From: Minisyncoccota bacterium
Lineage (GTDB): Bacteria; Patescibacteriota; Minisyncoccia; Phycocordibacterales; UBA9973
Length of the DNA: 64,000 nt
Direction of reading: 5' to 3'
Assembly (NCBI GenBank): GCA_036405895.1
Contig: DASWWS010000001.1
Coordinates: 6,523-70,522, forward strand
Made by a program: the position numbers and the translations under genes. The notes under the pieces are model-generated. The model was not told the origin of the DNA. It saw nothing but the letters and a program-made list of their open reading frames with translations, and searched no databases. Positions 10,605-27,875 of this stretch are shown one piece after another. Each line of letters begins with the position of its first letter. The first letter of the stretch is position 1.

Positions 10605-12266
10605 ATGGAAGAAACTATTAGAACCCTTGTTGCAGATGCGCTCAAAGATTCCTTTGGGCTTGAGGGTATAGCAATTGTGGTTGAGGAGCCAAAGGACCTC
10701 GCGCACGGCGACTATGCTACAAGCGTCGCTCTGTCTGTATCAAAAACGCTTGAGAAAAATCCAAGGGAAATTGCCAACACTCTTGCGGCTCTTCTTAATG
10801 AGAAAAAGGGAAATGACATAGCAGAAGTTACGGTTGCAGGACCGGGCTTTATTAACTTCACCCTCGCACCTGTTTATTTCGCCAAAACCCTTGAAACCAT
10901 TCTCGAGAAACAGAATGAATGGGGGAGCAATGAATTGCACAAAGGCAAAAAGATTTTGGTGGAGCACTCAAGCCCCAACCTCTTTAAGCCCTTTCACATC
11001 GGCCACGTGATGAACAACACAATAGGGCAGTCGCTTGTGGAGCTTGCTCGCGCATCCGGTGCGGCGGTGACTACCACTTCATTTCCGTCCGATATTTCGC
11101 TCGGAGTGGCGAAAGCCATTTTCATTCTTCTTGAAAAGGGAAATGCAGAGATTTCTATTGACATGCTCGGACAGGCGTATGTTGAGGGCACAAAGCGCTA
11201 CGATGAAGACGAGACAACTCATATGCGCATCAAGGAAATAGCAGATCATTTGTACGCACAAACACCATCAGATGAATACGAATTTTTTCAGGCCTGCAAG
11301 GCACTCAATATCGCATACTTCGAAAGCATTCTTTCTCGCTTAGGATCTGATTTTGACTCGTACATCTATGAAAGCGAAGCAGGGGTAGAAGGAAAGAAAA
11401 TCGTACTTAAGAATACTCCAGGTGTATTTACCGAGAGCGAGGGTGCAGTCGTGTATGTACCGGCTGAAGATCGCAAAGACATTAATACTGCAGTATTCAT
11501 CAACTCTCAAGGCAACCCGACATATGAAGCAAAAGATATTGGGCTTCTTTCAATGAAGTTTAATCGCTATGCGCCTGACCTGTCGCTTTTTGTTACCGAC
11601 AACCAGCAGGTTCCGCACTTTGCAGTGGTGCTTGATGCAGCAAAGCATATCAATGATGAGTGGGCATCCAAGAGCATCCATATCCACCACGGGCGCATGT
11701 CATTCAAGGGTGAAAAAATGTCGTCGCGTCTTGGCGGGGTACCCGTTGCTCAGGAGATGATGGACGCTGTTGGCGAGGAAGCTGCTGTGCGGGCAAAGGA
11801 TAAAGATATCGTACAAGCAGACGCGATAGCGATAGCGGCAATCAAGTTTTCAATCCTTCGTGCAGCGGCAGGAAAGGATATCAACTTCGACCCGGAAACT
11901 TCGCTTTCGTTTGAAGGCGACTCAGGGCCATACCTGCAGTATTCAACCGTGCGCGCACAATCTATTCTTGCAAAAGGAGGAGTCGGTACTCCAGTACTTC
12001 CCGAGAATTGGACTACAACTACTCTTGAAAAACAGCTCATCCATTTTCCGGAAGTAGTGGCGCACGCAATAGAGGAGTGGTCCCCGCACTTTTTAGTGAC
12101 CTATCTGCTCGAGCTCTCTCAGAGCTTCAACAGCTGGTACGGCAACACCAAAGTGATTGATGACACTGCCGAGTCTCCTTACAAACTTGCCCTTACCGCC
12201 GCTTTTGCGCAAACAATGAAAAACGGCCTGAAACTCCTCGCCCTCCCATTGCCCTCAAAAATGTAA
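10605..12266 (+). CDS. argS: Arginyl-tRNA synthetase
   Basis: Class I HIGH motif (PFHIGHVMN), KMSK-like KMSSR, ArgRS-type N-terminal domain and C-terminal ...KM end. 553 aa. Confidence 0.8.
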   Translation: MEETIRTLVADALKDSFGLEGIAIVVEEPKDLAHGDYATSVALSVSKTLEKNPREIANTLAALLNEKKGNDIAEVTVAGPGFINFTLAPVYFAKTLETILEKQNEWGSNELHKGKKILVEHSSPNLFKPFHIGHVMNNTIGQSLVELARASGAAVTTTSFPSDISLGVAKAIFILLEKGNAEISIDMLGQAYVEGTKRYDEDETTHMRIKEIADHLYAQTPSDEYEFFQACKALNIAYFESILSRLGSDFDSYIYESEAGVEGKKIVLKNTPGVFTESEGAVVYVPAEDRKDINTAVFINSQGNPTYEAKDIGLLSMKFNRYAPDLSLFVTDNQQVPHFAVVLDAAKHINDEWASKSIHIHHGRMSFKGEKMSSRLGGVPVAQEMMDAVGEEAAVRAKDKDIVQADAIAIAAIKFSILRAAAGKDINFDPETSLSFEGDSGPYLQYSTVRAQSILAKGGVGTPVLPENWTTTTLEKQLIHFPEVVAHAIEEWSPHFLVTYLLELSQSFNSWYGNTKVIDDTAESPYKLALTAAFAQTMKNGLKLLALPLPSKM

Positions 12267-12291: not shown

Positions 12292-12338
12292 TAGATTTCT
12301 TGAAAAGTATTTCATCTTCGAAATGGTATACAGGAATA

Positions 12339-13022
12339 ATGAAACGAAAAGAACCGTTTGTTATCGGAGAGTATTACCATATTTATAATAGAGGAATTGA
12401 TAAGCGTATTATCTTTTTGGATACACAAGACTATCGGAGATTTGTACAGCTGTTGTATGTAGCAAACAGTACCAATAGCTTTGAGTTGGGAAATTTTTTC
12501 ATTAACAATAAAAAAACTTTTGAAGACCTTTTTCATATAGAAAGAGGAGAGCCGTTGGTGGCAATAGGGGCGTGGGCTTTGATGCCTAACCATTTTCATT
12601 TAGTGGTGCGGGAGTGTACTGAAGGCGGCATTACTACCTTTATGAAAAAACTCGGAACGGCGTACTCGATGTATTTCAATATAAAGTACAAAAGAACAGG
12701 AAGCTTGTTTGGAGGACTGTTTAAGTCAAAACATATTGAAACAGATATTTATCTTCAGCACCTGTTCGGCTATGTGCATCTTAACGCGCTTGATCTTATG
12801 GATAGCTACTGGGAGTCTTCAATAACGGAGAGCTTGCCTTCCATGTGGATGAGTTTTCTTACCAAGTACAGCTATTCAAGCTTTCATGAATACAACACCA
12901 CTGAGGCACGATTAGAATCAAACATTTTAGATAAGGAGAAATTCCCCGAGTATTTTGCAGACACGCATTCTTTTGAAAACTTTGTTACCAACTACCTTAT
13001 GTATCGGGAGGAGCTCACCTAA
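12339..13022 (+). CDS. IS200/IS605-family Y1 (HUH) transposase of the REP-associated RAYT type
   Basis: HUH motif NHFHLVV. The catalytic-Tyr region QHLFGYVHLNALDL aligns with E. coli RayT HHVDYIHINPLKHG. N-terminal YHIYNRG. Flanked by inverted REP copies. Confidence 0.7.
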   Translation: MKRKEPFVIGEYYHIYNRGIDKRIIFLDTQDYRRFVQLLYVANSTNSFELGNFFINNKKTFEDLFHIERGEPLVAIGAWALMPNHFHLVVRECTEGGITTFMKKLGTAYSMYFNIKYKRTGSLFGGLFKSKHIETDIYLQHLFGYVHLNALDLMDSYWESSITESLPSMWMSFLTKYSYSSFHEYNTTEARLESNILDKEKFPEYFADTHSFENFVTNYLMYREELT

Positions 13023-13569: not shown

Positions 13570-13779
13570 GACCTCAATTTTTCTTCCTGTCTATCTTGTT
13601 CGAAGGTACTGTTTCGGTATAATGAAAGTACGGCTATTGATTTATAGTGCCTAGAACAATTGGTATATGGGGAGTCGTGTGGTGAGTTTTGCGTCAGAAT
13701 TTTTATCGCGGCGTTTCTCGCATCCAGACACCCCACTTGGCTTTCTGCTAAGGCACTATCCATCAATAGCCGTAATGAA

Positions 13780-13815
13780 GAACCCATGTGCGCTCTGCAC
13801 ATGGGTTCTTTGTTT
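13780..13815 (+). terminator. Strong hairpin plus T-run (terminator or attenuator) in the ORF-free region after ndk
   Basis: GAACCCATGTGC-gctct-GCACATGGGTTC (12-bp stem) followed by TTTGTTTTC. Confidence 0.55.
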
Positions 13816-13819
13816 TCTG

Positions 13820-14269
13820 ATGTATACTTTGAGCATGATACAAACCGGTTTACAAAAGCGTTTGGCTGTTGTTTCACTCTTTTTTATCCTCCTGATGCTC
13901 GGCCTGCACCTGGCCGCAAATGCTTTTTATTGGTACGTCTCGATACAATGGTACGACATGATGATGCACGCTCTTGGAGGGGTGTTTTTGGCCGTTTTTA
14001 CAGCAGCATTTTTCTATAAACATATCCTGGAAATGAACCGGTACGAGACCTTTGTCACACTGTTGCTTGCGGTGATGATAGTGGGGGGCGCCTGGGAGTA
14101 TTTTGAATACGCAGTGCAGTATGTGTTCAAGGGGTCTATGATGCTCGCCGAATTTCCAGACTCTGTTTCTGATATGGTATGCGACATGGCAGGGGGAATG
14201 CTCGGGACGTATTTTGTGTTACGCCAGAAGAAACGGTACAATGGTACCGATGGAAACGATTTTAAATAA
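13820..14269 (+). CDS. Hypothetical polytopic membrane protein
   Basis: Several hydrophobic helices. Start placed after the upstream hairpin (the ORF is open from 13667, so the start is uncertain). Confidence 0.35.
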   Translation: MYTLSMIQTGLQKRLAVVSLFFILLMLGLHLAANAFYWYVSIQWYDMMMHALGGVFLAVFTAAFFYKHILEMNRYETFVTLLLAVMIVGGAWEYFEYAVQYVFKGSMMLAEFPDSVSDMVCDMAGGMLGTYFVLRQKKRYNGTDGNDFK

Positions 14270-15638
14270 AACACTCAAAGTAACATTCGCCGGAGGCACA
14301 GGGTCAGTGACAGGGGCGAATTTTTTGCTCGAAGGCACTGACAGTGAGGGCTCAAAGAAATTCCTTGTCGATTGCGGGCTCACCCAAGGTTCAAAAATTG
14401 CAGACGACAAAAACTGGGAAGCGTTTATCTACGACCCTAAGAGCATTGATATCCTCTTTATTACGCATGCGCACATCGACCACATCGGCCGCATTCCAAA
14501 ACTTATCTTCGACGGCTTTGATGGCGAGATTGTTTCAACCATTCCAACAAAAGAAATCACGGAGTTAATGCTCGAAGACACGGTGAATATTCTTTCTCGC
14601 AGCGATGACGAGCGGCTGCAAAAAATCTACACGCCGGCAATGCTTGAAAAAGTAATGCGCAAGTGGAAGACGCTTGATTACCATCAAGATATGAAAGTAG
14701 GGGACTTTGTCTTTCGCTATCGCGATGCGGGGCACATCCTCGGCTCCGGCATGCTTGAGGTCATCTACAACAACAAGAAAATCATTTTCACTGGAGACTT
14801 GGGCAATTCGCCGTCGCCACTATTGCGCGATACTGAAGTTTTGAAAAACGTGGACTACCTTATTATGGAAAGCGTCTATGGCGACCGCAACCACATCGAC
14901 CGCCTTGAGCGCCGAACGCGATTGGAAGAAGCCCTTGAAGACAACTACAAGCGAAAGGGTACGCTTATTATCCCAACGTTTTCTCTCGAACGTGCACAAG
15001 AGCTGTTGTTTGAAATCAACGAACTGGTTGAAAACCACCGCATTCCGCAGATGCCGATATTCTTTGATTCTCCGCTTGCGATTAAGCTCACAAAAGTTTA
15101 TGGAAAGTACGCAAAGTATTTTAATGCATTTGCGCAAAAACAAATTGGAGAAGGGGATGACATTTTTAATTTCCCGGGCTTGAAAAGCACACTCCTTACC
15201 GAAGAATCAAAACAGATTCTTTATGAACACAACCCTAAAATAGTAATCGCAGGCTCCGGCATGAGCAATGGCGGGCGCATCCTGCACCACGAAGCGCATT
15301 ATTTGCCCGACCCAAAGAACACGCTTTTGCTGACAGGATATCAGTCTGTCGGAACATTGGGGCGCATTATTCAAGACGGTGCAAAGCAAGTGCAGATCAA
15401 CCATCAAATGGTGGCTGTGCGCGCAAACATTGTATTTATCAACGGCTACTCCGGGCACAAAGACTCCGATCACCTTATCGAATTTGTGGAGGCTATTGCC
15501 GACACGGTAAAGAAAGTATATGTCGTGATGGGCGAACCGAAGTCATCGCTCTTTCTCACGCAGCGCCTGCGCGACTACCTTGGCGTAAAAGCATACGCGC
15601 CGGAAGAAGGTGATGTGGTAGAATTGGACTGTAATTAA
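14241..15638 (+). CDS. Metallo-beta-lactamase-fold hydrolase of the beta-CASP family (RNase J/CPSF-like)
   Basis: HxHxDH motif (ITHAHIDHIG). beta-CASP-like C-terminal region with conserved His (YSGHKDSDH). Confidence 0.7.
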   Translation: MVPMETILNKTLKVTFAGGTGSVTGANFLLEGTDSEGSKKFLVDCGLTQGSKIADDKNWEAFIYDPKSIDILFITHAHIDHIGRIPKLIFDGFDGEIVSTIPTKEITELMLEDTVNILSRSDDERLQKIYTPAMLEKVMRKWKTLDYHQDMKVGDFVFRYRDAGHILGSGMLEVIYNNKKIIFTGDLGNSPSPLLRDTEVLKNVDYLIMESVYGDRNHIDRLERRTRLEEALEDNYKRKGTLIIPTFSLERAQELLFEINELVENHRIPQMPIFFDSPLAIKLTKVYGKYAKYFNAFAQKQIGEGDDIFNFPGLKSTLLTEESKQILYEHNPKIVIAGSGMSNGGRILHHEAHYLPDPKNTLLLTGYQSVGTLGRIIQDGAKQVQINHQMVAVRANIVFINGYSGHKDSDHLIEFVEAIADTVKKVYVVMGEPKSSLFLTQRLRDYLGVKAYAPEEGDVVELDCN

Positions 15639-15655: not shown

Positions 15656-16309
15656 ATGCACGAAGAAATCGCAACACCACAATATTATTACAACGGACCG
15701 CTTGAAACATCAGACAAGCACGGCCATTTGCGCATGAAAATTGGCATCAGCGGAGCGGCTGAAACAGGACACTGCGGACTCAATGCGCTTGAACAAGCAA
15801 AAGAATTGGGCCGCCAGGTCATCAAGCAAGGGGGCATTGTGGTCACTGGTGCAACCACCGGCTTTCCATTGTGGGCTGCAATGGGCGCAAAAGAAGAGCG
15901 CGGTGTATCTATCGGGCTCTCACCGGCAGGAAGCCAGAAAGAACACTTGGAAACCTACCGGCTTCCTGTCGACTATATGGACCTCATTATCTACACAGGC
16001 TTTGGCTTCCCGGGGCGCGACTTGTTGTTTACTCGCAGTTGCGACGCAGTTGTTATTGGGTGCGGGCGCATCGGCACCATACACGAATTCACCATTGCCT
16101 ATGAAGATGGAAAGCCTGTTGGTATTTTGGAAGGGCCATGGACGATGGACGAGCAGATTCGCGACTTGATGGAAAAAAGCAATCGTCCATCGGATAGGGT
16201 CATTTACGACAGTGACCCAAAGCGCTTAATCGAGCGACTCGTGCAAATGGTGGATACCGACCGAAGAGGGCTTGAACGACACCCGGTAGAGACCAAGAGC
16301 ATTCAATAA
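15656..16309 (+). CDS. TIGR00725/LOG-like Rossmann-fold (SLOG) protein
   Basis: KIGISGAAETG...GGIVVTGATTG...DAVVIGCGRIGTIHEF pattern. The true start may be the internal MKIGISG. Confidence 0.45.
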   Translation: MHEEIATPQYYYNGPLETSDKHGHLRMKIGISGAAETGHCGLNALEQAKELGRQVIKQGGIVVTGATTGFPLWAAMGAKEERGVSIGLSPAGSQKEHLETYRLPVDYMDLIIYTGFGFPGRDLLFTRSCDAVVIGCGRIGTIHEFTIAYEDGKPVGILEGPWTMDEQIRDLMEKSNRPSDRVIYDSDPKRLIERLVQMVDTDRRGLERHPVETKSIQ

Positions 16310-16324
16310 TGGATTTTTGCCCAG

Positions 16325-16530
16325 ATTCCAGTATACTGGGCATATAAGCGCTGACGGGGCTATCACCCCTGAGCTTCGGGAAGAACCTCGCAAGAGTAGT
16401 AGACCCCGGCGGGTATGCCCGTTACAGCAGTAACAAGCCCCGCAGAGCGGGGGAAACAAGGTGGTACCACGAGCAGAAACTCGTCCTTGAATTGTGACTT
16501 TATTGTCATTATTCGTGGACGAGTTTTTAT
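16325..16530 (+). promoter_or_regulatory. T-box-like riboswitch leader upstream of ileS
   Basis: GGTGGTACCACGAG at 16461-16474 resembles the T-box consensus GGUGGNACCGCG. An F-box-like CCGTTA sits at about 16428. A possible AUCA specifier lies in the GGGGctATCAcccc hairpin. An AACTCGTCC/GGACGAGTT stem with a T-run at 16477-16528 could be the terminator. Confidence 0.55.
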
Positions 16531-16541
16531 TTTTATATTTT

Positions 16542-19500
16542 ATGGAACAACAAGCAGAACAAACAAAGAGCGAGCGCGCACTTTCTGAAGAGAGGGTATT
16601 GGCATTTTGGCGTGAGAACAACATTTTTGAAAAGACCCTCTCCAAGGATTCTCCAAAAGGCGAGTTTGTTTTCTTCGAAGGTCCGCCAACTGCAAATGCA
16701 AAGCCCGCACTTCACCATCTCGAAGCGCGCGCATTCAAAGACGTAATCCCGCGCTACAAAACAATGCAGGGCTACCATGTGCCGCGCCGCGCTGGATGGG
16801 ACACGCATGGGCTTCCAGTAGAGCTTCAGATAGAAAAGAAGCTTGGTTTCACTTCAAAGAAAGATATTGAAAACTTTGGCATTGCAGAGTTCAACAAAGA
16901 GTGCAAAGACAGCGTATTTACCTATATCAAAGACTGGGAAGAGTTTACCGACCGCATCGGGTACTGGGTTGATAAAAAGAGTGCGTACTACACCTTCAAC
17001 AATTCATACATTGAGTCGCTATGGAATATTGTCGGCACTGTGGAACAAAAAGGACTGTTGTACAAGGACTACAAAATCATTCCGTGGTGCGCGCGCTGCG
17101 GTACTTCTTTGGCGTCGCACGAACTCGCGCAGGGGTATTTGGACGTGAAGGACTTAAGTGTGTACGCAAAGTTTAAAGTAAGGGGTGAAGAGAATACGTT
17201 TATTCTTGCATGGACTACTACACCATGGACGCTTCCGGGCAATGTCGCGCTTGCGGTAGGGAATGATATTGAGTACGTGTTTGCGCAGTACAACAATGAA
17301 ATAGTGATTCTTGCAAAAGAACGCCTCAGTCTTTTGGAAGGGGAATACGTAATAGTAAAAGAAGTAAAAGGTACTGACCTTGTGGGGCTTGAATACGAAG
17401 CACTGTATCCATACCTTTCAGAATTGATAGATGGTCCTGAAAAAGAAAAAATGCAGAATGCTTACAAAGTGTATGCGGCTGATTTTGTGACCACAACCGA
17501 TGGTACCGGCATCGTGCACACGGCAGTCATGTACGGAGCAGACGACTTTGAATTGGGCACAAAAGTAGGCTTGCCAAAATTCCATACTGTTGGCGTGGAT
17601 GGAAAATTTATTAAAGGAACAGGCTCGTTTGAAGGGCGCTTTGTAAAAGACGAAGATGTTGCCATTGATGTTATTAAGGACCTCGCCCATAGAGGGTTGT
17701 TGTTCAAAAAAGAAAAGTACGAACACTCCTACCCGCACTGCTGGCGCTGCAAGACCGCGCTTATCTACTACGCACGGGACTCATGGTATATCGGCATGGA
17801 ATCTCTGCGTGAAGAGCTTGTCGCACAAAACGAAAACATCAACTGGGAACCGTCGCATATTAAAGAGGGGCGCTTTGGCGAATGGCTTCGCAATATCAAA
17901 GACTGGGCAATTTCTCGCGAACGATACTGGGGTACGCCGCTTCCGGTATGGGTAGCCGAGGATAACCAGAGAATCGTTGTCGACTCTGTTGAAACACTCA
18001 AGACTTTGTCTAAAAAGTCAGACAACAAGTATTTGGTAATGCGCCATGGACAGACTGAACACAATGTTAAGGGGCTTTGGAATTATGGAAATCAAGATGG
18101 CGACCCGCTTACGCAGATAGGGGTACAGCAAGTAGCTGATGCCGTAAAAGGATTAAATGGTGCAAAAATCGATATGATTATTGCGTCACCCTTTTTGCGC
18201 ACGCTTGAAACAGCGCAAGAAGTGGCGCGTGCCCTCGGTATGCCCACTGATTCAATCGTCACCGATCCTCGCCTTGCGGAGTGGAAAGTGGGAGGCGACT
18301 ATGACGGAAAGCCGCTCAATGATTTTTTCACTGTCCGCAATAAAAGCGAGGATAGGTACAACTTCAGAGCAGAGGGAGGGGAGTCGTATATAGAAGTCGT
18401 TGAGCGCGCGGGAGATTTTATCTACTCTCTTGAAAAGGAGTATGCAAATAAAACTATTCTCATCATCTCTCATGGCGCTGTGACACGCGCAATCGAATTG
18501 CACGCACGAGGCATCTCATTTGATAAGCTTTTTGAGACCACGCGCGACTATGTGAACTTTGCCAATGCAGAAATCCGCCACATCGACTTTGTTCCGCTTC
18601 CGCACAACGAGCGCTATGAGCTTGATTTGCACCGGCCGTATATCGACGACGTCGTCTTGGTACGTGACGGAAAAGAATACCGCCGCATCAAAGAGGTGAT
18701 GGATGTATGGTTTGATTCGGGTGCGATGCCTTTTGCTTCATCCGCCAAAATTTCTGAAGGAAATTTAGGCGGACAAGCATCACTCGGAGATAGATTTAAA
18801 AATATCGATTTTCCAGCAGACTTTATTTCAGAAGCGATTGATCAGACCCGTGGGTGGTTTTACACGCTTCATGCGATAGGTGTATTGATGGGGCGGGGGA
18901 ATGCGTATAAAAACGTCATTTGCTTGGGACACCTCTTGGACGCAAGCGGAAAGAAGATGTCGAAATCAATCGGCAACATTGTCGACCCGTGGGAGCAGAT
19001 GGCAAAGTACGGCGTGGACACGCTCAGGCTTTGGATGTACTCCGTCAACCAGCCAGGGGACTCAAAAAACTATGATGAGAAAACAGTAGTCGAGCTTCAG
19101 CGCCAAGTGTTTGGGCTCTTGTATAACGTGCTTTCATTTTATGAACTCTACCGCGACAGCGCAATTGAAAGTGAGGAGAGCGTGAGCAGTAATGTGCTTG
19201 ATGCATGGATACTGGCGCGCCTTAATCAGTTCATCACGCTTACAACAGAAAGTCTGGATGCGTACAAAACATTCGAACCGGTTCGCGCGCTTCGCGACTT
19301 TATGGACGACCTTAGTACGTGGTACCTTCGCCGAAGTCGCGACCGCATCAAAGACGGTGAGAAAGAGGCAAAAAGAACGCTCTATGTTGTATTGAAAACA
19401 CTGACAAAAGTAATCGCACCATTCGCACCATTTGCAGCAGAAGACATTTGGCAGAAGTTAAAGAAAGAATCAGATGAGGAGAGTATTCATCTTTCACAGT

Positions 19501-19964
19501 GGCCTACGGCCGGCACTATCGATACAGAAGTATTGGGGCAGATGGAAACAACTCGCGCATTGTGTGCAACAGGAAATGCGCTTCGCAAAAAAGCGATGAT
19601 ACCTGTACGCCAGCCGCTTTTGGCATTGCGTGTAAAAAACCTTTCGCTCGAACAGGTCTATCTGCAAATCATTATGGATGAGCTCAATGTGAAAGGAATC
19701 GTTGAAGACCCAGAACTTGCAGGGGAGTCCGAGCTTGATGTGACGATGACCGAAGAGTTGAAACTCGAAGGCGCATATCGCGAGCTTGTTCGCACCGTAC
19801 AAGACCTTCGCAAGGAAAAAAATCTTTTGCCCAACGATGTAATCACTCTTGCTCTCCCGATTCAATACAAAGAAATTGTTGAAGCGTTTGGAGAGGAGCT
19901 GAAAAAAACGGTAGGAGCAAAAGAACTGAGTATCTCGAACGATGAAATGATAAGCTTGCAGTAG
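16542..19964 (+). CDS. ileS: Isoleucyl-tRNA synthetase (ileS2/eukaryote-like type without C-terminal Zn finger) carrying an internal histidine-phosphatase domain insertion
   Basis: Class I core, CP1 editing region, DLHRPYIDDV and KMSKSIGN motifs. About 190 extra residues at 18030-18600 (see findings). 1141 aa. Confidence 0.9.
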   Translation: MEQQAEQTKSERALSEERVLAFWRENNIFEKTLSKDSPKGEFVFFEGPPTANAKPALHHLEARAFKDVIPRYKTMQGYHVPRRAGWDTHGLPVELQIEKKLGFTSKKDIENFGIAEFNKECKDSVFTYIKDWEEFTDRIGYWVDKKSAYYTFNNSYIESLWNIVGTVEQKGLLYKDYKIIPWCARCGTSLASHELAQGYLDVKDLSVYAKFKVRGEENTFILAWTTTPWTLPGNVALAVGNDIEYVFAQYNNEIVILAKERLSLLEGEYVIVKEVKGTDLVGLEYEALYPYLSELIDGPEKEKMQNAYKVYAADFVTTTDGTGIVHTAVMYGADDFELGTKVGLPKFHTVGVDGKFIKGTGSFEGRFVKDEDVAIDVIKDLAHRGLLFKKEKYEHSYPHCWRCKTALIYYARDSWYIGMESLREELVAQNENINWEPSHIKEGRFGEWLRNIKDWAISRERYWGTPLPVWVAEDNQRIVVDSVETLKTLSKKSDNKYLVMRHGQTEHNVKGLWNYGNQDGDPLTQIGVQQVADAVKGLNGAKIDMIIASPFLRTLETAQEVARALGMPTDSIVTDPRLAEWKVGGDYDGKPLNDFFTVRNKSEDRYNFRAEGGESYIEVVERAGDFIYSLEKEYANKTILIISHGAVTRAIELHARGISFDKLFETTRDYVNFANAEIRHIDFVPLPHNERYELDLHRPYIDDVVLVRDGKEYRRIKEVMDVWFDSGAMPFASSAKISEGNLGGQASLGDRFKNIDFPADFISEAIDQTRGWFYTLHAIGVLMGRGNAYKNVICLGHLLDASGKKMSKSIGNIVDPWEQMAKYGVDTLRLWMYSVNQPGDSKNYDEKTVVELQRQVFGLLYNVLSFYELYRDSAIESEESVSSNVLDAWILARLNQFITLTTESLDAYKTFEPVRALRDFMDDLSTWYLRRSRDRIKDGEKEAKRTLYVVLKTLTKVIAPFAPFAAEDIWQKLKKESDEESIHLSQWPTAGTIDTEVLGQMETTRALCATGNALRKKAMIPVRQPLLALRVKNLSLEQVYLQIIMDELNVKGIVEDPELAGESELDVTMTEELKLEGAYRELVRTVQDLRKEKNLLPNDVITLALPIQYKEIVEAFGEELKKTVGAKELSISNDEMISLQ

Positions 19965-19965
19965 C

Positions 19966-20541
19966 ATGCACACCATTCACCACACCGAAGCGATTGTACT
20001 TAAGAGCACTGTTCACGGCGAAGCGAACAAGCGCCTATGGCTCTTTACGCGCGAATTCGGCTTGGTGGTTGCGGCGATGCAGGGGGTTCGAAAGCCCGGT
20101 GCCAAGCTTGCCTCGCACTCGAGCGACTACTCAATCATCCGCGCAGACCTGGTAAAGGGGCGCGAGGTATGGCGGCTGATTAGTGCCAAGGTTGTACAAA
20201 GCCCTCTTGAAGGCCGCATGCGCGAATCACTAGCGCGCGCCTATGTGCGCACGCTCTCAGCGCTCGCTCGGTTTTTGGTTGACGAGGGAGTACACGAGGA
20301 ATTGTACGAGCATGTAGTGGTGTGCGCGGCGATGCTTGAAGAAGGTGGGTACGATGCAAAGGTGTTTGATGCACTGTCGTTGTGGCGAGTGCTTGCGCAT
20401 TTGGGATACATTGCCGTAGACGAGCGCGATGAGGCATTGTTTACGCTCCCGCTTCGCGAAGCCTATGCTGCTACAACAGCGCCCCAGCATGCTCGACTGA
20501 TGGAAAGTGTGAAAAGCGCAATCGAGCAAAGCCATTTGTAG
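19966..20541 (+). CDS. recO: DNA repair protein RecO-like (short form)
   Basis: N-terminal OB-fold pattern (EAIVLKSTVHGEANKRLWLFTREFG). Translationally coupled to ileS. Confidence 0.45.
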   Translation: MHTIHHTEAIVLKSTVHGEANKRLWLFTREFGLVVAAMQGVRKPGAKLASHSSDYSIIRADLVKGREVWRLISAKVVQSPLEGRMRESLARAYVRTLSALARFLVDEGVHEELYEHVVVCAAMLEEGGYDAKVFDALSLWRVLAHLGYIAVDERDEALFTLPLREAYAATTAPQHARLMESVKSAIEQSHL

Positions 20542-20559: not shown

Positions 20560-22446
20560 ATGTCCGACCAAATTGATCATATTGCCGAATTGCAAAAGCG
20601 CCTCTATGCGCGTGATCCTGAAAGCGTTCCAAAACGAAAGTTCGGTATCTTGCGCCCATTGAAGCATAATGTTGCGTCTACCTGGGGAGACACCGAGCTT
20701 GAGCACGACAAGCCTATCAAGCGCACCAGCGTTTCTGGCTACAAGCGATTTTTTATATTCTCATTTTTCTTTTTTCTTGTAGCATTTGCAGCGCTCGCGT
20801 TTTCTGTGTATCGCGGGGCGTTGACCCTTTCTGCAAAAAACGTTGACCTCAACGTGCTGGGCAGTTCTTTTGTCGCAGGCGGAGAAGAGCTCCCCATACA
20901 GGTAGAAATTGTAAACAAAAACTCAAGCGATCTGGTGAACGCAACGCTTACCCTTGATTATCCAAAAGGTGCGACAGATGTGGGAGGAAGCGATGTTGTT
21001 CGCATTCAAAAAGTATTGGGAACAATCGGAAGCGGAAAAACAAAGAGCGAAGAATTTTCTGTTGTCTTGTATGGCGAACAGGGGACAGACCGCACTATCA
21101 CCGCAAAGCTCTCCTACACGCTTGCAGGATCAAGCTCTACGTTTCAAAAGGAAAAAGTGTTTTCTGTAAAAATAAGTTCAAGCCCGCTCGCACTCACGCT
21201 TGATGCGCCGGTAGCGCTTGCCTCCAACCAGCCGTTTACCCTCACGCTCCGCAACCTCTTCACTGGAGACAATCTTCTTTCAAATGTATTGGCGCGCGTC
21301 GAATATCCAAACGGTTACGTGTACCAGTCTTCGACCCCGGCTCCTATTTCTGGAAACAATGTATGGGCATTGGGGGATTTGCAAAAAGGCGCTGAGCAAA
21401 CGATTCAAATCAAAGGGAAACTGATTGGGGAAGAGGGAGATGAAAAAGCGTTTCGCGTGTATGTCGGTACGCCCGAGAGCATTTCCGACAGTCGCATTGC
21501 CGTTGTTTATAATTCCGCGCTTCATACGCTTACGCTCTCAGAGCCGTTTATTGCAAGTGAGCTTTTCGTTAACGGCGAGGGAACCGATATTGTTGCCGTG
21601 CCGATCGGCGGCTCGGTCAATGGTACTGTTTCTTGGACCAATACTTCCGGCGAGCGCATCGCGGACCCGACGTTTACGCTCGCCCTCAATGGCGAGAGCA
21701 TTGATGCAAGCTCTATCCGTGCTGATAGCGGATATTTTGACCCGCTGACTCGAACCCTTACATGGAACGCACAGTCCAATGCCGTATTGAGCGTGCTTGA
21801 GCCGGGGCAGACAGGGCAGCTTTCATTTAGCTTCAACACGCTTTCATCTCGAGCGGTCAATGACGCAACGCTTGCGCTTTCAATCAAGGGAACCTTCCCG
21901 GATCGCGGCTATAGTGAACAGAGCATTGCAAATATCGATGAGGCCACCGTGCGCTACGCGTCGCACTTGCAATTTGCCGCTCAATCATTTTATTCAGTCG
22001 GCCTTATTAAAAATACCGGACCATTTCCTCCAAAGGCAAACGAAGAAACAACGTATACTATTACGTGGACTGCGCGCCCAAGCGAAAATGCACTCTCTTC
22101 ATACCGTGCATCGGCGGTGCTTCCGATCAATGTTGTATGGAGTGGTGTGGTGAGCCCGCAGGCGGAGCCGATAGTCTACAATCCGGAAACCCGCACCGTT
22201 TCCTGGGATGTGGGAGTGGTTCCTCGAGCAACAAGCACTCCGCAGTCGCGCGCCGTATCATTCCAGGTAAAGGTTCGCCCGACGAGTGCCCAGGTAGGCC
22301 TTGAGCTGCCGCTCTTGGAGCCGACGGTAGTTACTGCAACCGATACTGTGGCAAACGTGCCGTTGACTCGAACCTTGCCGGACCTTTCTACTCGCCTCGA
22401 CAGCGACCCGGCCTATAGCCCAGGGAAGGAGAAAGTGCTACCATAA
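20560..22446 (+). CDS. Hypothetical membrane-anchored extracellular protein with repeated beta-rich (Ig/DUF11-like) domains
   Basis: Single N-terminal TM helix (FFIFSFFFFLVAFAALAF), then about 550 aa of Thr/Ser/Val-rich repeats. Confidence 0.45.
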   Translation: MSDQIDHIAELQKRLYARDPESVPKRKFGILRPLKHNVASTWGDTELEHDKPIKRTSVSGYKRFFIFSFFFFLVAFAALAFSVYRGALTLSAKNVDLNVLGSSFVAGGEELPIQVEIVNKNSSDLVNATLTLDYPKGATDVGGSDVVRIQKVLGTIGSGKTKSEEFSVVLYGEQGTDRTITAKLSYTLAGSSSTFQKEKVFSVKISSSPLALTLDAPVALASNQPFTLTLRNLFTGDNLLSNVLARVEYPNGYVYQSSTPAPISGNNVWALGDLQKGAEQTIQIKGKLIGEEGDEKAFRVYVGTPESISDSRIAVVYNSALHTLTLSEPFIASELFVNGEGTDIVAVPIGGSVNGTVSWTNTSGERIADPTFTLALNGESIDASSIRADSGYFDPLTRTLTWNAQSNAVLSVLEPGQTGQLSFSFNTLSSRAVNDATLALSIKGTFPDRGYSEQSIANIDEATVRYASHLQFAAQSFYSVGLIKNTGPFPPKANEETTYTITWTARPSENALSSYRASAVLPINVVWSGVVSPQAEPIVYNPETRTVSWDVGVVPRATSTPQSRAVSFQVKVRPTSAQVGLELPLLEPTVVTATDTVANVPLTRTLPDLSTRLDSDPAYSPGKEKVLP

Positions 22447-22452
22447 GCAATC

Positions 22453-23775
22453 ATGAACGAAACCACGATGGAACAACTTATCAGCCTCTGCAAGCGACGC
22501 GGCTTTATATTCCAAGGCTCTGAAATCTACGGCGGCCTCGCGGGTACGTGGGACTATGGTCCTTTGGGAATAGAGCTCAAGCGCAATATTCAAACCCTGT
22601 GGTGGAATATGTTTATCCAGGGGCGCGAAGACATGTACGGTGTGGACGCCGCTATTTTAATGAATCAAAACGTATGGAAGGCATCAGGGCATGTAGGCGG
22701 TTTTTCTGATCCGCTTGTCGAATGTACAAAGTGCAAGCGAAGATTCCGTGCAGACCATCTGGAAGACACAACTGCGTGTCCGGAATGTGCTGGCGCTCTC
22801 GGGGAAGCGCGCCAATTCAATATGATGTTCAAAACTTCTGTCGGTGCGATTGAAAGCGAAGACAGCACTTCCTATTTACGACCTGAAACTGCACAGGGAA
22901 TGTTCGTAAACTTTAAAAATGTTGTCGACAGCATGCGGCCCAAGCTTCCGTTTGGTCTCGGGCAGATAGGGAAGGCGTTTCGAAATGAAATTGCGCCGCG
23001 CGACTTTATTTTCCGCTCACGAGAATTCGAGCAGATGGAAATCGAGTATTTTGTAGAAGAAAAAGACTGGGAGAAAAAGTTTTCAGAATGGATAGAAGCG
23101 ATGTATGCGTGGATGGCTGCTGTGGGTATTCCAAAAGAAAGCGTGCACGAGCTTGAAGTTGAGCCGGGTGACCTCGCGCACTATTCAAAGCGCACGATGG
23201 ACTTTGAATTTGATTTCCCGTTTGGACGCAAAGAGCTCTACGGTCTTGCATACCGCACCAACTTTGACCTCAACAATCATGCAGAAGCAAGCAAGACGCC
23301 ATTGTATGTGGTGGAAGATGAGTCTGGAGAAAAAATAGTACCGCACTGCATCGAGCCGACATTCGGCGTGGATCGTACTGTTCTTGCAGTGCTTGCAAGT
23401 GCATATACAGAGGTTGGAGAGGGAGACGACAAACATGTTGTGTTGAAGCTAAAGCCGTCTCTCGCACCATATAAAGCATGTGTTTCTCCACTTCTCAAAA
23501 ATAAGCCGGAGCTTGTAGAGAAAGCACGCGAAGTGTTTGTGAAATTGAAAAAAGAATTTGGTGCAATTGCATGGGACGACAACGGCAACATCGGCAAGCG
23601 CTATCGCCGAGCGGATGAAATCGGTACACCGTACTGCATTGTCATCGACTTTGATACGCTCGGAGAAAACGCAGACCTCCTTGATACAGTGACAGTCCGT
23701 GACCGCGACAGCGGAGAACAGACGCGAAAAAACATTTCCGATCTCGCTGACTTCTTGAAAGAAAAGCTCGCGTAA
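22453..23775 (+). CDS. glyQS: Glycyl-tRNA synthetase (alpha2 homodimeric type)
   Basis: RRGFIFQGSEIYGGLAGTWDYGPLG and class II motifs. 440 aa. Confidence 0.85.
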   Translation: MNETTMEQLISLCKRRGFIFQGSEIYGGLAGTWDYGPLGIELKRNIQTLWWNMFIQGREDMYGVDAAILMNQNVWKASGHVGGFSDPLVECTKCKRRFRADHLEDTTACPECAGALGEARQFNMMFKTSVGAIESEDSTSYLRPETAQGMFVNFKNVVDSMRPKLPFGLGQIGKAFRNEIAPRDFIFRSREFEQMEIEYFVEEKDWEKKFSEWIEAMYAWMAAVGIPKESVHELEVEPGDLAHYSKRTMDFEFDFPFGRKELYGLAYRTNFDLNNHAEASKTPLYVVEDESGEKIVPHCIEPTFGVDRTVLAVLASAYTEVGEGDDKHVVLKLKPSLAPYKACVSPLLKNKPELVEKAREVFVKLKKEFGAIAWDDNGNIGKRYRRADEIGTPYCIVIDFDTLGENADLLDTVTVRDRDSGEQTRKNISDLADFLKEKLA

Positions 23776-26414: not shown

Positions 26415-27875
26415 ATGAAAACTCCGTTCTATATCACCACTACGCTTCCATACGTGAATGCGCCGCTTCATATGGGGCACGCCCTTGAATTTGTTCGTGC
26501 CGATACAGTAGCCCGCTATAAAATGCTGCAGGGCTTTGACGTCTTTTTCAATACCGGTACCGATGAGCACGGGCAAAAGATTTATACCAAAGCAGTAGAA
26601 AAAGGGGAGACCCCTCAGCAGTTCGTTGATGCGGGGTTTGAGAATTTTAAAACCCAGGTTGCGTCTTTTGGGGTAACCGACGAAGCGCATTATATCCGCA
26701 CCACAGACGAACACCATGTTGCCGCAGCACAGGAGTTTTGGAAGCGCGTGTACGACAATGGCTATATTTATAAAAAGACCTATGAGGCAAAATACTGCGT
26801 TGGCTGCGAGTCTGAAAAAACAGACTCTGAGCTCGTGAATGGGGAATGCCCAGAGCATCCAGGAACAACGCTTCAAGTCATCAATGAAGAAAATTATTTC
26901 TTCAAGTATTCTGCATTCCAAGAAAAACTCATAGCATTCTATGAAGCCAATCCAACATTTATTATCCCCGAATTTCGCTTCAATGAGATAAAGGCATTCG
27001 TAGAAGGGGGACTGCAGGACTTTTCCATTTCGCGCGTAAAAGAAAAAATGGCATGGGGCGTGCCGGTGCCCGGCGACGATAGCCAGGTGATGTATGTGTG
27101 GTTTGATGCGCTCGTAAACTACATCTCAACACTCGGCTGGCCGCACAATGATGAGTCATTTGAGAAATACTGGATGAACGGAACGCCGGTGCAGTACTGC
27201 GGAAAGGATAATACCCGATTCCAAGGAGCGATGTGGCAGGCAATGCTCATGGCGGCCGATGTGCCCAACTCGCACCATATAGTGGTCAACGGATTCATCA
27301 CCGCCGACGGCGGCGTGCGCATGTCTAAGACATTGGGCAACGTTATCGACCCGCTTGGCATTTCAAACGAGTACGGCGTAGATGTCCTTCGCTTTTTCCT
27401 CCTTCGCGAAATCACGAGCTTTGAAGACAGCCCTTTTACCGAAGAGCGCTTTCGAGAGAGCTACCAAGCCAACCTTGCAAATGGCCTTGGTAATCTTGTA
27501 TCGCGCATTATGAAAATGGTGGTGAATTATGAAGTGGAGTACACACTTCCAACCAATGTCGACTTGCTTGAATTTGATGATGCAGTGCCCGAAGGTTTTA
27601 AAGAAAAGATTGAAAGCTTTGACCTCAAGAGTGCAATGGATGATATTTGGCGCGAGGTAACAGGGCTCGATTGGCTCATTCAAAACAAAGAGCCGTTCAA
27701 GCTTGCAAAGACTGATATGGCTGGCGCGCAAGAAATTGTCGCTGAGCTTGCAACACGCCTCTACATCATCGGCTTTTTGCTCCAGCCGTTTATGCCAACA
27801 ACTGCACAAACTATTATGGACTTGGTGAAAGAAAAAAAGATGCCCGAGGCACCATTATTCAACAGACTAGATTAA
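26415..27875 (+). CDS. metG: Methionyl-tRNA synthetase (short form without the C-terminal tRNA-binding domain)
   Basis: FYITTTLPYVNAPLHMGHALE (HIGH region) and KMSKTLGN (KMSKS). Confidence 0.85.
   Translation: MKTPFYITTTLPYVNAPLHMGHALEFVRADTVARYKMLQGFDVFFNTGTDEHGQKIYTKAVEKGETPQQFVDAGFENFKTQVASFGVTDEAHYIRTTDEHHVAAAQEFWKRVYDNGYIYKKTYEAKYCVGCESEKTDSELVNGECPEHPGTTLQVINEENYFFKYSAFQEKLIAFYEANPTFIIPEFRFNEIKAFVEGGLQDFSISRVKEKMAWGVPVPGDDSQVMYVWFDALVNYISTLGWPHNDESFEKYWMNGTPVQYCGKDNTRFQGAMWQAMLMAADVPNSHHIVVNGFITADGGVRMSKTLGNVIDPLGISNEYGVDVLRFFLLREITSFEDSPFTEERFRESYQANLANGLGNLVSRIMKMVVNYEVEYTLPTNVDLLEFDDAVPEGFKEKIESFDLKSAMDDIWREVTGLDWLIQNKEPFKLAKTDMAGAQEIVAELATRLYIIGFLLQPFMPTTAQTIMDLVKEKKMPEAPLFNRLD

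Follow-up and report, generated by a model that had tools for sequence, protein, structure and literature searches.

Aminoacyl-tRNA synthetases are among the most conserved enzymes, and where they carry accessory domains these usually point to additional functions, for example in editing, signalling or resistance. What a phosphatase nested inside the catalytic body of such an enzyme may be doing there is the question raised by an isoleucyl-tRNA synthetase (IleRS) gene on contig DASWWS010000001.1 of a Minisyncoccota bacterium (assembly GCA_036405895.1), located in a stretch of 64,000 nucleotides that was analysed as a whole and is referred to as the window. A first-pass annotation, made from the letters alone, had claimed that this gene holds a complete branch-1 histidine phosphatase in frame, and this was borne out: the plus-strand open reading frame (ORF) is continuous (16494..19964; probable start at the ATG at 16542, the one that all homologues use), and the His_Phos_1 profile matched within it at E=1.9e-32. 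The motifs that the annotation had quoted were all present in the translation at the places given, and its coordinates for the domain, 18030-18600, were essentially right, the full insert with linkers covering 18012-18617. A database protein of a Candidatus Paceibacterota metagenome-assembled genome (P0001, 'class I tRNA ligase family protein') has exactly the same sequence as the 1140-aa product. The gene and its inserted module are composed as follows, where CP denotes a connective-peptide region and AF2 an AlphaFold2 model:

16542..19964, plus strand: whole gene, type-2 IleRS with nested histidine phosphatase, 1140 aa plus stop (TIGR00392, AF2, PDB matches)
16542..18011, plus strand: N-terminal part of IleRS with the first half of the HUP/Rossmann domain, CP1 with the editing domain and the start of CP2; aa 1-490 (tRNA-synt_1, aa 19-493)
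16707..16718, plus strand: non-canonical class I signature ALHH, replacing HxGH; aa 56-59 (translation; kept in at least 98% of 120 homologues)
17928-17951, plus strand: flanking host motif WGTPLPVW (translation)
18012..18617, plus strand: inserted module, His_Phos_1 and two linkers, at the tip of the former CP2 zinc knuckle; aa 491-692 (alignments to P. megaterium IleRS2 and to insertion-less Patescibacteria IleRS)
18033..18557, plus strand: Pfam His_Phos_1 (PF00300) match; aa 498-672, E=1.9e-32, 112.9 bits against a gathering score of 21.7, profile positions 2-175 of 194
18042..18050, plus strand: RHG motif with R501, the predicted nucleophile H502 and G503; invariant in 81/81 and 98/98 sequences, catalytic role predicted from the family
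18198..18200, plus strand: R553, second arginine of the phosphate pocket (SPFLRT); invariant in 81/81
18279..18281, plus strand: E580, predicted general acid (LAEW); invariant in 81/81
18378..18386, plus strand: GES motif (translation)
18471..18473, plus strand: H644, second catalytic histidine (ISHG; HG at 18471-18476); invariant in 81/81
18594..18608, plus strand: PLPHN return linker, specific to IleRS-embedded copies; P687 invariant, H688 in 76/81, N689 in 75/81
18618..19961, plus strand: C-terminal part of IleRS with the rest of CP2, the second HUP half (DVWFDSG, KMSKS), and the anticodon-binding and type-2 C-terminal domains; aa 693-1140
18624-18647, plus strand: flanking host motif DLHRPYID (translation)

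The host protein is a type-2 IleRS (IleRS2). It passed the ileS equivalog model TIGR00392 of NCBIfam with 857 bits (cut-off 621.4) in two stretches split by the insert, and the Pfam tRNA-synt_1 match was likewise broken into two parts flanking His_Phos_1. The assignment to IleRS2 follows from the C-terminal DUF5915 domain, the ALHH signature and the best sequence and fold matches, which were IleRS2 structures, with IleRS1 scoring far lower. The best PDB sequence match was the IleRS2 of P. megaterium (PmIleRS2; 749 bits), whose residues 13-475 aligned with the N-terminal part and residues 485-847 with the C-terminal part, the latter comprising Anticodon_1 (aa 887-1026) and DUF5915 (aa 1065-1134) according to Pfam. 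The full-length AF2 model had a mean predicted local distance difference test score (pLDDT) of 84.3 and a predicted TM score (pTM) of 0.76 and, with the insert removed, superposed on the IleRS2 structure 8c8w (TMt 0.78) and on 1ile (TMt 0.88). The KMSKS motif is intact (aa 805-809, nt 18954-18968), the editing motifs WTTTPWTLPGN and DGTGIVHTA..YGADD are kept across the clade, and aa 198-399 match the isolated IleRS editing-domain chain 1wk8. According to a 2023 structural study, G/AXHH is a described variant that is confined to IleRS2 and confers mupirocin hyper-resistance, and the IleRS2 of D. radiodurans, which has exactly ALHH, is fully active with a mupirocin Ki of 6.6 mM (PMC10485003). 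The ALHH motif predicts that the synthetases described here are of this hyper-resistant kind. The models for MupA (NF000257, 724 bits) and MupB (NF000258, 729 bits) were not reached at their cut-off of 1900, identifying the window protein as a related IleRS2 but another protein. No other IleRS occurs in the 64-kb window. With KMSKS, the editing motifs, the anticodon-binding domains and a known ALHH variant all present, the synthetase looks functional. A loop after DVWFDSG...PFA (18744-18794, aa 735-751) is gapped in most homologues and was predicted with pLDDT <50; the equivalent loop of a related IleRS (P0264) holds a whole GNAT domain, and this loop may be a second permissive insertion site.

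As the first-pass annotation had suggested, the insertion point could be mapped by alignment, and it lies in CP2 between PmIleRS2 residues 475 and 485. Residue 490 of the window protein corresponds to PmIleRS2 residue 475 and residue 693 to residue 485, so that about 200 residues stand in place of about nine. The HUP catalytic core of PmIleRS2 is given as residues 40-168 and 513-632 in the structural study (PMC10485003); the insertion point falls outside these residues and therefore in the connective region, some 30 residues ahead of where the core resumes at DVWFDSG. In insertion-less Patescibacteria IleRS a CxxC...CxC zinc knuckle is found exactly at this position. The window protein has no knuckle cysteines and reads VAEDNQ (~17952-17969, aa 471-476) and RDGKEY (~18660-18677, aa 707-712) instead, while an insertion-bearing relative (P0129) retains them; the zinc site may have been lost after the insertion took place. 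The protein is thus nested on three levels, the HUP domain containing CP2 and CP2 containing the phosphatase at the tip of the knuckle. The PLPHN linker that leads back into the synthetase is also present in IleRS hosts that are only 40-63% identical to that of the window (P0173, P0208, P0129) and is missing from free-standing phosphatases. Two deep IleRS lineages have the insertion at this same site, about 38-40 residues past WG[TA]P[LI]P: one is of the PPTAN...G/AxHH...DVWFDS type, the other of the PPFATG...HYGH...DCWFES type. As PLPHN is common to both, a single origin of the insertion is favoured.

The inserted module itself has the properties of a branch-1 histidine phosphatase, namely the Pfam score, the RHG motif together with a second arginine, a second histidine and an acidic donor, and a PGAM-like alpha/beta fold. 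Structure prediction, which had been proposed at the outset as a check for an independent lobe, yielded a confident compact domain resembling PhoE, CobC and GpgP: modelled alone, it reached a pLDDT of 93.3 and a pTM of 0.91, and in the full-length model it belonged to the most reliably predicted regions (pLDDT 88-96 for most of its 10-residue blocks). Foldseek matched the model, at probability 1.00, to Rv2419c (GpgP), PspA, TIGAR, CobC, PhoE and a riboflavin-pathway phosphatase (TM 0.70-0.75, 19-25% identity); the nearest solved structures are all compact small-molecule phosphatases. None of the curated NCBIfam phosphatase subfamilies was passed by the insert alone: CobC (TIGR03162) came closest with 87.3 bits against a cut-off of 162.9, followed by RNase H/acid phosphatase (NF005567, 69.7 against 326), archaeal dPGM (NF038349, 63.5 against 225), PspA (NF045917, 51.1 against 350) and SixA (TIGR00249, 24.5 against 74.5). 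The insert is acidic, with a mean net charge of -7.5 and a mean pI of 5.35 over 120 orthologues, which argues against a general RNA-binding surface. Its residues indicate that it is an apparently catalytically intact histidine phosphatase. PADLOC gave no defence-system match for the insert or the upstream ORFs.

The nested architecture is widespread. Among the 120 best database homologues, reaching down to 60% identity, all carried PF00300 within the same protein. A scan of genomes with one genome per species, of which 455 matched the region, showed the domain inside a long ORF (765-1361 aa) in every one of the best 80, which were inspected (46-89% identity; 286-290 of 290 query residues matched); the survey of related candidate phyla radiation (CPR) genomes that had been suggested therefore supports the initial observation. 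The carriers were named as Nomurabacteria, Zambryskiibacteria, Taylorbacteria, Campbellbacteria, Paceibacterota, Minisyncoccia and Parcubacteria. When residues were counted by alignment column over the window sequence and these 80 genomes, R501, H502, G503, R553, E580 and H644 were invariant in all 81. The length of the insert varied only between 192 and 199 aa among 120 orthologues, and its identity to the window was 55%, compared with 74% for the N-terminal and 61% for the C-terminal part of the synthetase. The ratio of non-synonymous to synonymous substitution rates (dN/dS) came to 0.058 in the insert, compared with 0.054 in the N-terminal part of the synthetase and 0.092 in its C-terminal part, in the comparison with the closest relative (L001, dS ~1.4), the only one for which it is informative, as synonymous sites were saturated in the other relatives. 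By this measure, the insert is under purifying selection equal to that on the synthetase core. GC content showed no discontinuity across the insert.

The possibility, already raised by the first-pass annotation, that the insertion is a standard feature of a known IleRS clade turned out to be partly right: a large Paceibacteria/Parcubacteria clade of IleRS has the insert as a fixed feature, but the literature searched did not describe it. Nor did this literature, a description elsewhere being possible, report any aminoacyl-tRNA synthetase that contains a histidine phosphatase or is linked to one through gene neighbourhood; term searches in the 2023 structural study (PMC10485003) and in a 2026 preprint surveying 96,219 IleRS yielded no mention of a phosphatase. 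Automatic annotation already shows the domain, in entries such as 'class I tRNA ligase family protein' and 'valyl-tRNA synthetase/broad specificity phosphatase PhoE'.

The domain is not confined to IleRS. A search with the insert alone against 1.84 billion cluster representatives returned 946 clusters at E<1e-10. In most of the best 150 representatives the domain was embedded in IleRS, with flanks only 35-70% identical to those of the window, and every multi-domain host that was classified among these 150 was IleRS, valyl-tRNA synthetase (ValRS) or TsaC, with no unrelated host seen; being seeded with an IleRS-embedded domain, the search favours the closest relatives of that domain. Within IleRS, one variant carries two tandem copies at the same site (P0194), one a second copy past KMSKS (P0231), and three have copies after DCWFES (P0163, P0238, P0249). 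Another (P0264) combines His_Phos_1 with an in-frame GNAT and a Y1 transposase-like domain, the Y1_Tnp being located inside the editing region. In Magasanikbacteria-like ValRS (P0274-P0392), His_Phos_1 occupies a different loop, after DTWFSSG...LGWP, between DTWFSSGLWTFSTLGWP and FHPTSVMETGYDILFFW. ValRS with the domain are 1050-1090 aa long and those without it 866 aa; over the roughly 39% of the query that the best local alignment spans, their identity is 80-88%. The two forms occur in identical synteny (L090, L091), consisting of two iPGM genes, ValRS, a small ORF, TyrRS and ArgRS. A single ValRS fragment bears four copies. Finally, one protein is a fusion of TsaC (L-threonylcarbamoyladenylate synthase), which passed the TIGR00057 cut-off, with His_Phos_1 at its C-terminus. 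This phosphatase family has thus been fused repeatedly to adenylate-forming translation enzymes, namely IleRS, ValRS and TsaC, at differing sites and in one to four copies. The related proteins P0132, P0194, P0231, P0227 and P0172/P0197/P0204 comprise arrays of two to four apparently catalytically intact His_Phos_1 copies per ValRS or IleRS, the TsaC fusion and free-standing tandem double phosphatases of 360-450 aa.

The closest relatives that are not embedded form a family of Patescibacteria proteins of about 189 aa (the P0224 family; 33% identity, 318 matches at E<1e-10), annotated as 'histidine phosphatase family protein' or 'broad specificity phosphatase PhoE'. In 6/6 contexts inspected, the gene of this free-standing phosphatase belonged to a cluster of the order argS-phosphatase-(0-3 small genes)-ileS-recO and started 0-54 nt past the argS stop. 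Some are directly followed by ileS, with a 1-nt gap (L081), a 7-nt overlap (L083) or a 70-nt gap (L089); elsewhere, one to three small genes lie in between, encoding an HD_3 hydrolase, a CYTH protein, an RHH/ParE-like toxin-antitoxin pair or an unknown protein. In one lineage (L085/L086, 6652-7187) an RHH antitoxin and ParE/YafQ-like toxin pair stands together with the HD_3 hydrolase between the free phosphatase and ileS. Downstream of ileS follow recO, a gene for a DUF11/CLIPPER protein and, where the locus reaches that far (L081, L083), a class II aminoacyl-tRNA synthetase. The IleRS encoded downstream of the free genes lack the insertion and are of three sequence types, 36-53% identical to that of the window, so that the association has outlasted replacement or divergence of the synthetase. 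The order of genes in the window is the same, with ArgRS, four other genes, IleRS::phosphatase, RecO, the DUF11 protein and GlyRS, and the 64-kb window contains no second phosphatase of this family. The relevant neighbours, together with a fourth synthetase of the group, are:

10605-12263, plus strand: ArgRS, on the same strand as IleRS
19966-20538: RecO, directly after IleRS::phosphatase
20560-22443: DUF11 surface-type protein, after RecO
22453-23772, plus strand: GlyRS, after the DUF11 protein
26415-27872, plus strand: MetRS, fourth aminoacyl-tRNA synthetase of the group

In a neighbour-joining tree of the domains, the free family and the TsaC-fused copy were interleaved with IleRS-embedded copies, and ValRS-embedded copies formed separate groups; the tree is crude, being built from BLOSUM distances without support values, and was used only for the interleaving of free and IleRS-embedded copies. 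Because the synteny of the window is that of the free-gene clusters, it appears that the window protein arose when neighbouring genes fused in the manner of a Rosetta-stone pair, by insertion rather than by end-to-end joining.

We propose with moderate confidence that the protein is bifunctional, an ordinary IleRS2 to which an autonomous phosphatase of gene-neighbour origin is tethered, acting on a small and probably nucleotide-related molecule. According to this proposal, a complete branch-1 phosphatase of about 195 residues would have entered the CP2 zinc knuckle at its tip, with WGTPLPVW on one side and DLHRPYID on the other, and would form a separate globular lobe there with its own active site; the module would descend from the free-standing gene of about 189 codons that sits between argS and ileS in other Patescibacteria. 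If the standard two-step mechanism of the superfamily applies, R501, R553 and H644 would hold the terminal phosphate while H502 attacks it, E580 would protonate the leaving group, and the phospho-histidine would then be hydrolysed. The domain would act as a tethered and co-expressed phosphomonoesterase that takes no part in aminoacylation itself. Its occurrence as a free protein in many genomes, its placement in differing loops and its copy number of one to four make it probable that no exact positioning with respect to the synthetic site is required. Its substrate would be a small, probably nucleotide-related phosphoester tied to the host enzymes, such as AMP or another nucleoside phosphate and, less likely, pyrophosphate; this class is favoured since the partners are all ATP-consuming and adenylate-forming, releasing AMP and pyrophosphate, and since the nearest structures act on small phosphoesters. 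A role as pyrophosphatase was considered and disfavoured, as we know of no branch-1 histidine phosphatase with such a physiological role. What the data show directly is the nested architecture with its conservation and purifying selection, the predicted fold, the intact set of catalytic residues, the shared synteny and the repeated fusions; catalytic activity, the independence of the two sites and the substrate class are the parts of the proposal that we infer.

Several points weigh against it. As no subfamily model was passed, subfamily membership gives no substrate, and the nucleotide-related compound is favoured through guilt by association only. The gene-pair sample comprises six free-gene contexts obtained with a single query family, and the argS-ileS cluster could be a mere cluster of translation genes that happens to include an unrelated housekeeping phosphatase. 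In addition, a fixed insert with a strongly conserved PLPHN linker could mean a defined packing on the synthetase and hence a closer coupling than proposed. The embedded phosphatase might even be a true third active site beside synthesis and editing, acting on something that the enzyme handles, for example a blocking phosphate or pyrophosphate at the tRNA 3'-end or a nucleotide by-product or effector of adenylate-forming enzymes. We consider this unlikely; if true, it would mean a new phosphatase-dependent layer of control or repair of tRNA charging in Patescibacteria, common to IleRS, ValRS, ArgRS-linked and TsaC systems.

An equally improbable competitor of the tethered phosphatase is a housekeeping metabolic enzyme of the PhoE, phosphoserine or sugar-phosphate type that is unconnected to translation and was captured in permissive loops of large essential proteins, where a streamlined genome would be sure to express and keep it. 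Its closest structures and profiles are indeed those of generic metabolic phosphatases, the ValRS insertion comes and goes between close relatives while synteny is unchanged, and loops of CPR IleRS take up unrelated domains, as illustrated by P0264 with its GNAT and Y1 transposase domains and by the existence of an NCBIfam 'ileS_w_GNAT' model. Random capture, however, predicts neither the restriction of the classified multi-domain hosts to IleRS, ValRS and TsaC, which applies to the best 150 representatives of a search seeded with an IleRS-embedded domain, nor the persistence of the free gene at its argS-ileS place despite three types of downstream IleRS.

Somewhat less probable again is that the phosphatase acts on tRNA, removing a blocking 2'/3'-phosphate or pyrophosphate from the CCA end or another tRNA phosphate, so that repair would be coupled to charging. 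Toxins of the toxSAS type add a 3'-pyrophosphate to tRNA. The host enzyme binds tRNA and has the domain in its connective-peptide region, and the partners IleRS, ValRS, ArgRS and TsaC are all tRNA-related. To judge from the conserved PLPHN linker, the orientation of the domain is fixed, and the NF005567 family, which the insert matches at about 70 bits and thus below its cut-off, provides a curated precedent for a nucleic-acid enzyme joined to a CobC-like phosphatase. On the other hand, the acidic domain (-7.5, pI 5.35) has no extra basic surface, its structural neighbours are all small-molecule phosphatases, its insertion site varies by host and its copy number from 1 to 4, and it works as a free 189-aa protein in many genomes. 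The TsaC partner, moreover, makes threonylcarbamoyl-AMP and, to our knowledge, does not bind tRNA.

That the domain is a protein phosphatase appears very unlikely; it would undo phosphorylation that inhibits the synthetase or a partner, such as that caused by HipA-like toxin kinases, whose targets in other bacteria include aminoacyl-tRNA synthetases. Some branch-1 members, such as SixA, PGAM5 and Sts, are protein phosphatases, SixA was among the weak NCBIfam matches, and a built-in phosphatase would suit a self-protecting essential enzyme; yet the SixA match (24.5 against 74.5 bits) was partial as well as weak, neither a kinase in the conserved neighbourhoods nor a PADLOC match was found, and varied sites and tandem arrays are unexpected for a phosphatase directed at its own host. 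Hardly credible, finally, are readings of the insert as a chimera of the assembly, as a mobile element of intein-like or selfish kind, or as a degenerate spacer without catalytic function. The presence/absence polymorphism in ValRS, the tandem copies, the in-frame Y1 transposase domain of a related IleRS and a Y1_Tnp-like ORF in the window hint at mobility, but the same in-frame architecture recurs in independent assemblies of hundreds of species, without a GC break, with purifying selection as in the host and with invariant catalytic residues. The view of the first-pass annotation that the locus represents neither two genes nor an intein is upheld by the frame being kept in all homologues, the lack of a Hint domain and the non-nucleophilic junctions. 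An intein was rejected on the same grounds, Pfam showing no Hint or intein family and the junctions reading ...LS|KKSDN... and ...PHNERY|ELDL..., with Glu following HN; misassembly, a decaying insertion, a purely structural spacer and a pseudo-enzyme were rejected on conservation across species, invariant residues and dN/dS.

The surroundings of the gene offer further observations. ArgRS, IleRS, GlyRS and MetRS lie within 17 kb on one strand, interleaved with RecO, the DUF11 protein, an M16 peptidase and an AI-2E transporter. Immediately after ArgRS, the ORF 12300-13019 (plus strand) gave a weak match to Y1_Tnp, an IS200-like/REP-associated tyrosine transposase, and occupies the slot that is taken by the free phosphatase gene in relatives. 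The slot between the synthetase genes of relatives also holds other nucleotide or phosphate hydrolases (HD_3, CYTH). Directly upstream of ileS, 15656-16306 (plus strand) is a SLOG cluster-4/TIGR00725-like gene (LOG-like, predicted nucleotide-binding). It is preceded by a beta-CASP metallo-beta-lactamase RNase (14214-15635, plus strand), whose listed ORF starts at a TTG within the ORF 13667-14269. The curated models closest to this RNase are those for Cas14 of type VII CRISPR (384 against 800 bits) and archaeal aCPSF1 (291 against 580 bits), and it stayed below the cut-off of both.

The locus is relevant because the catalytic body of IleRS encloses a second, apparently intact enzyme, which strong purifying selection has maintained in hundreds of uncultivated species. 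A strong functional prediction follows, namely that these bacteria, a major branch about which little is understood, link a phosphatase activity to adenylate-forming translation enzymes. The ValRS provide natural pairs with and without the domain for comparison. The insertions also mark loops of class Ia synthetases that tolerate whole-domain insertion, which is useful for protein engineering.

Among known systems, PmIleRS2 (8C8U/8C8V/8C8W) and the D. radiodurans IleRS2 are of the same family and have the same domain order (Nat Commun 2023, PMC10485003); however, both have about nine residues and an intact CxxC...CxxC knuckle where the window protein has a phosphatase of 200 residues and has lost the cysteines. 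PhoE (1H2E), PspA (4IJ5), GpgP Rv2419c (4PZ9), CobC (6E4B/6NRU) and TIGAR share the fold and the catalytic residues of the insert at 19-25% identity, but are stand-alone proteins or N- or C-terminal domains, none of them nested in a synthetase. The P0224 family has the motifs GN.Y..RHG, SP..RT, GE[SN] and SHG and the compact fold class of the insert and differs in being encoded by a separate gene, in lacking PLPHN and in neighbouring an IleRS without insertion. The bifunctional RNase H/acid phosphatase (NF005567, Rv2228c type) similarly joins a nucleic-acid enzyme to a CobC-like phosphatase, but by end-to-end fusion and with another partner. In the ValRS and TsaC fusions, the same phosphatase subfamily is found on other adenylate-forming translation enzymes, with a differing loop or a C-terminal position. 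The IleRS with N-acetyltransferase (NF040702) is a curated precedent for an extra enzymatic domain in this synthetase, but the domain is a GNAT and not a phosphatase; the window protein is outside this model (317 bits against 1999) and has no acetyltransferase domain according to Pfam. Extra synthetase domains are therefore a known theme, and what appears new here is a phosphatase nested in IleRS; its conservation, its recurrence in ValRS and TsaC, and its probable origin from a gene pair should surprise the specialist.

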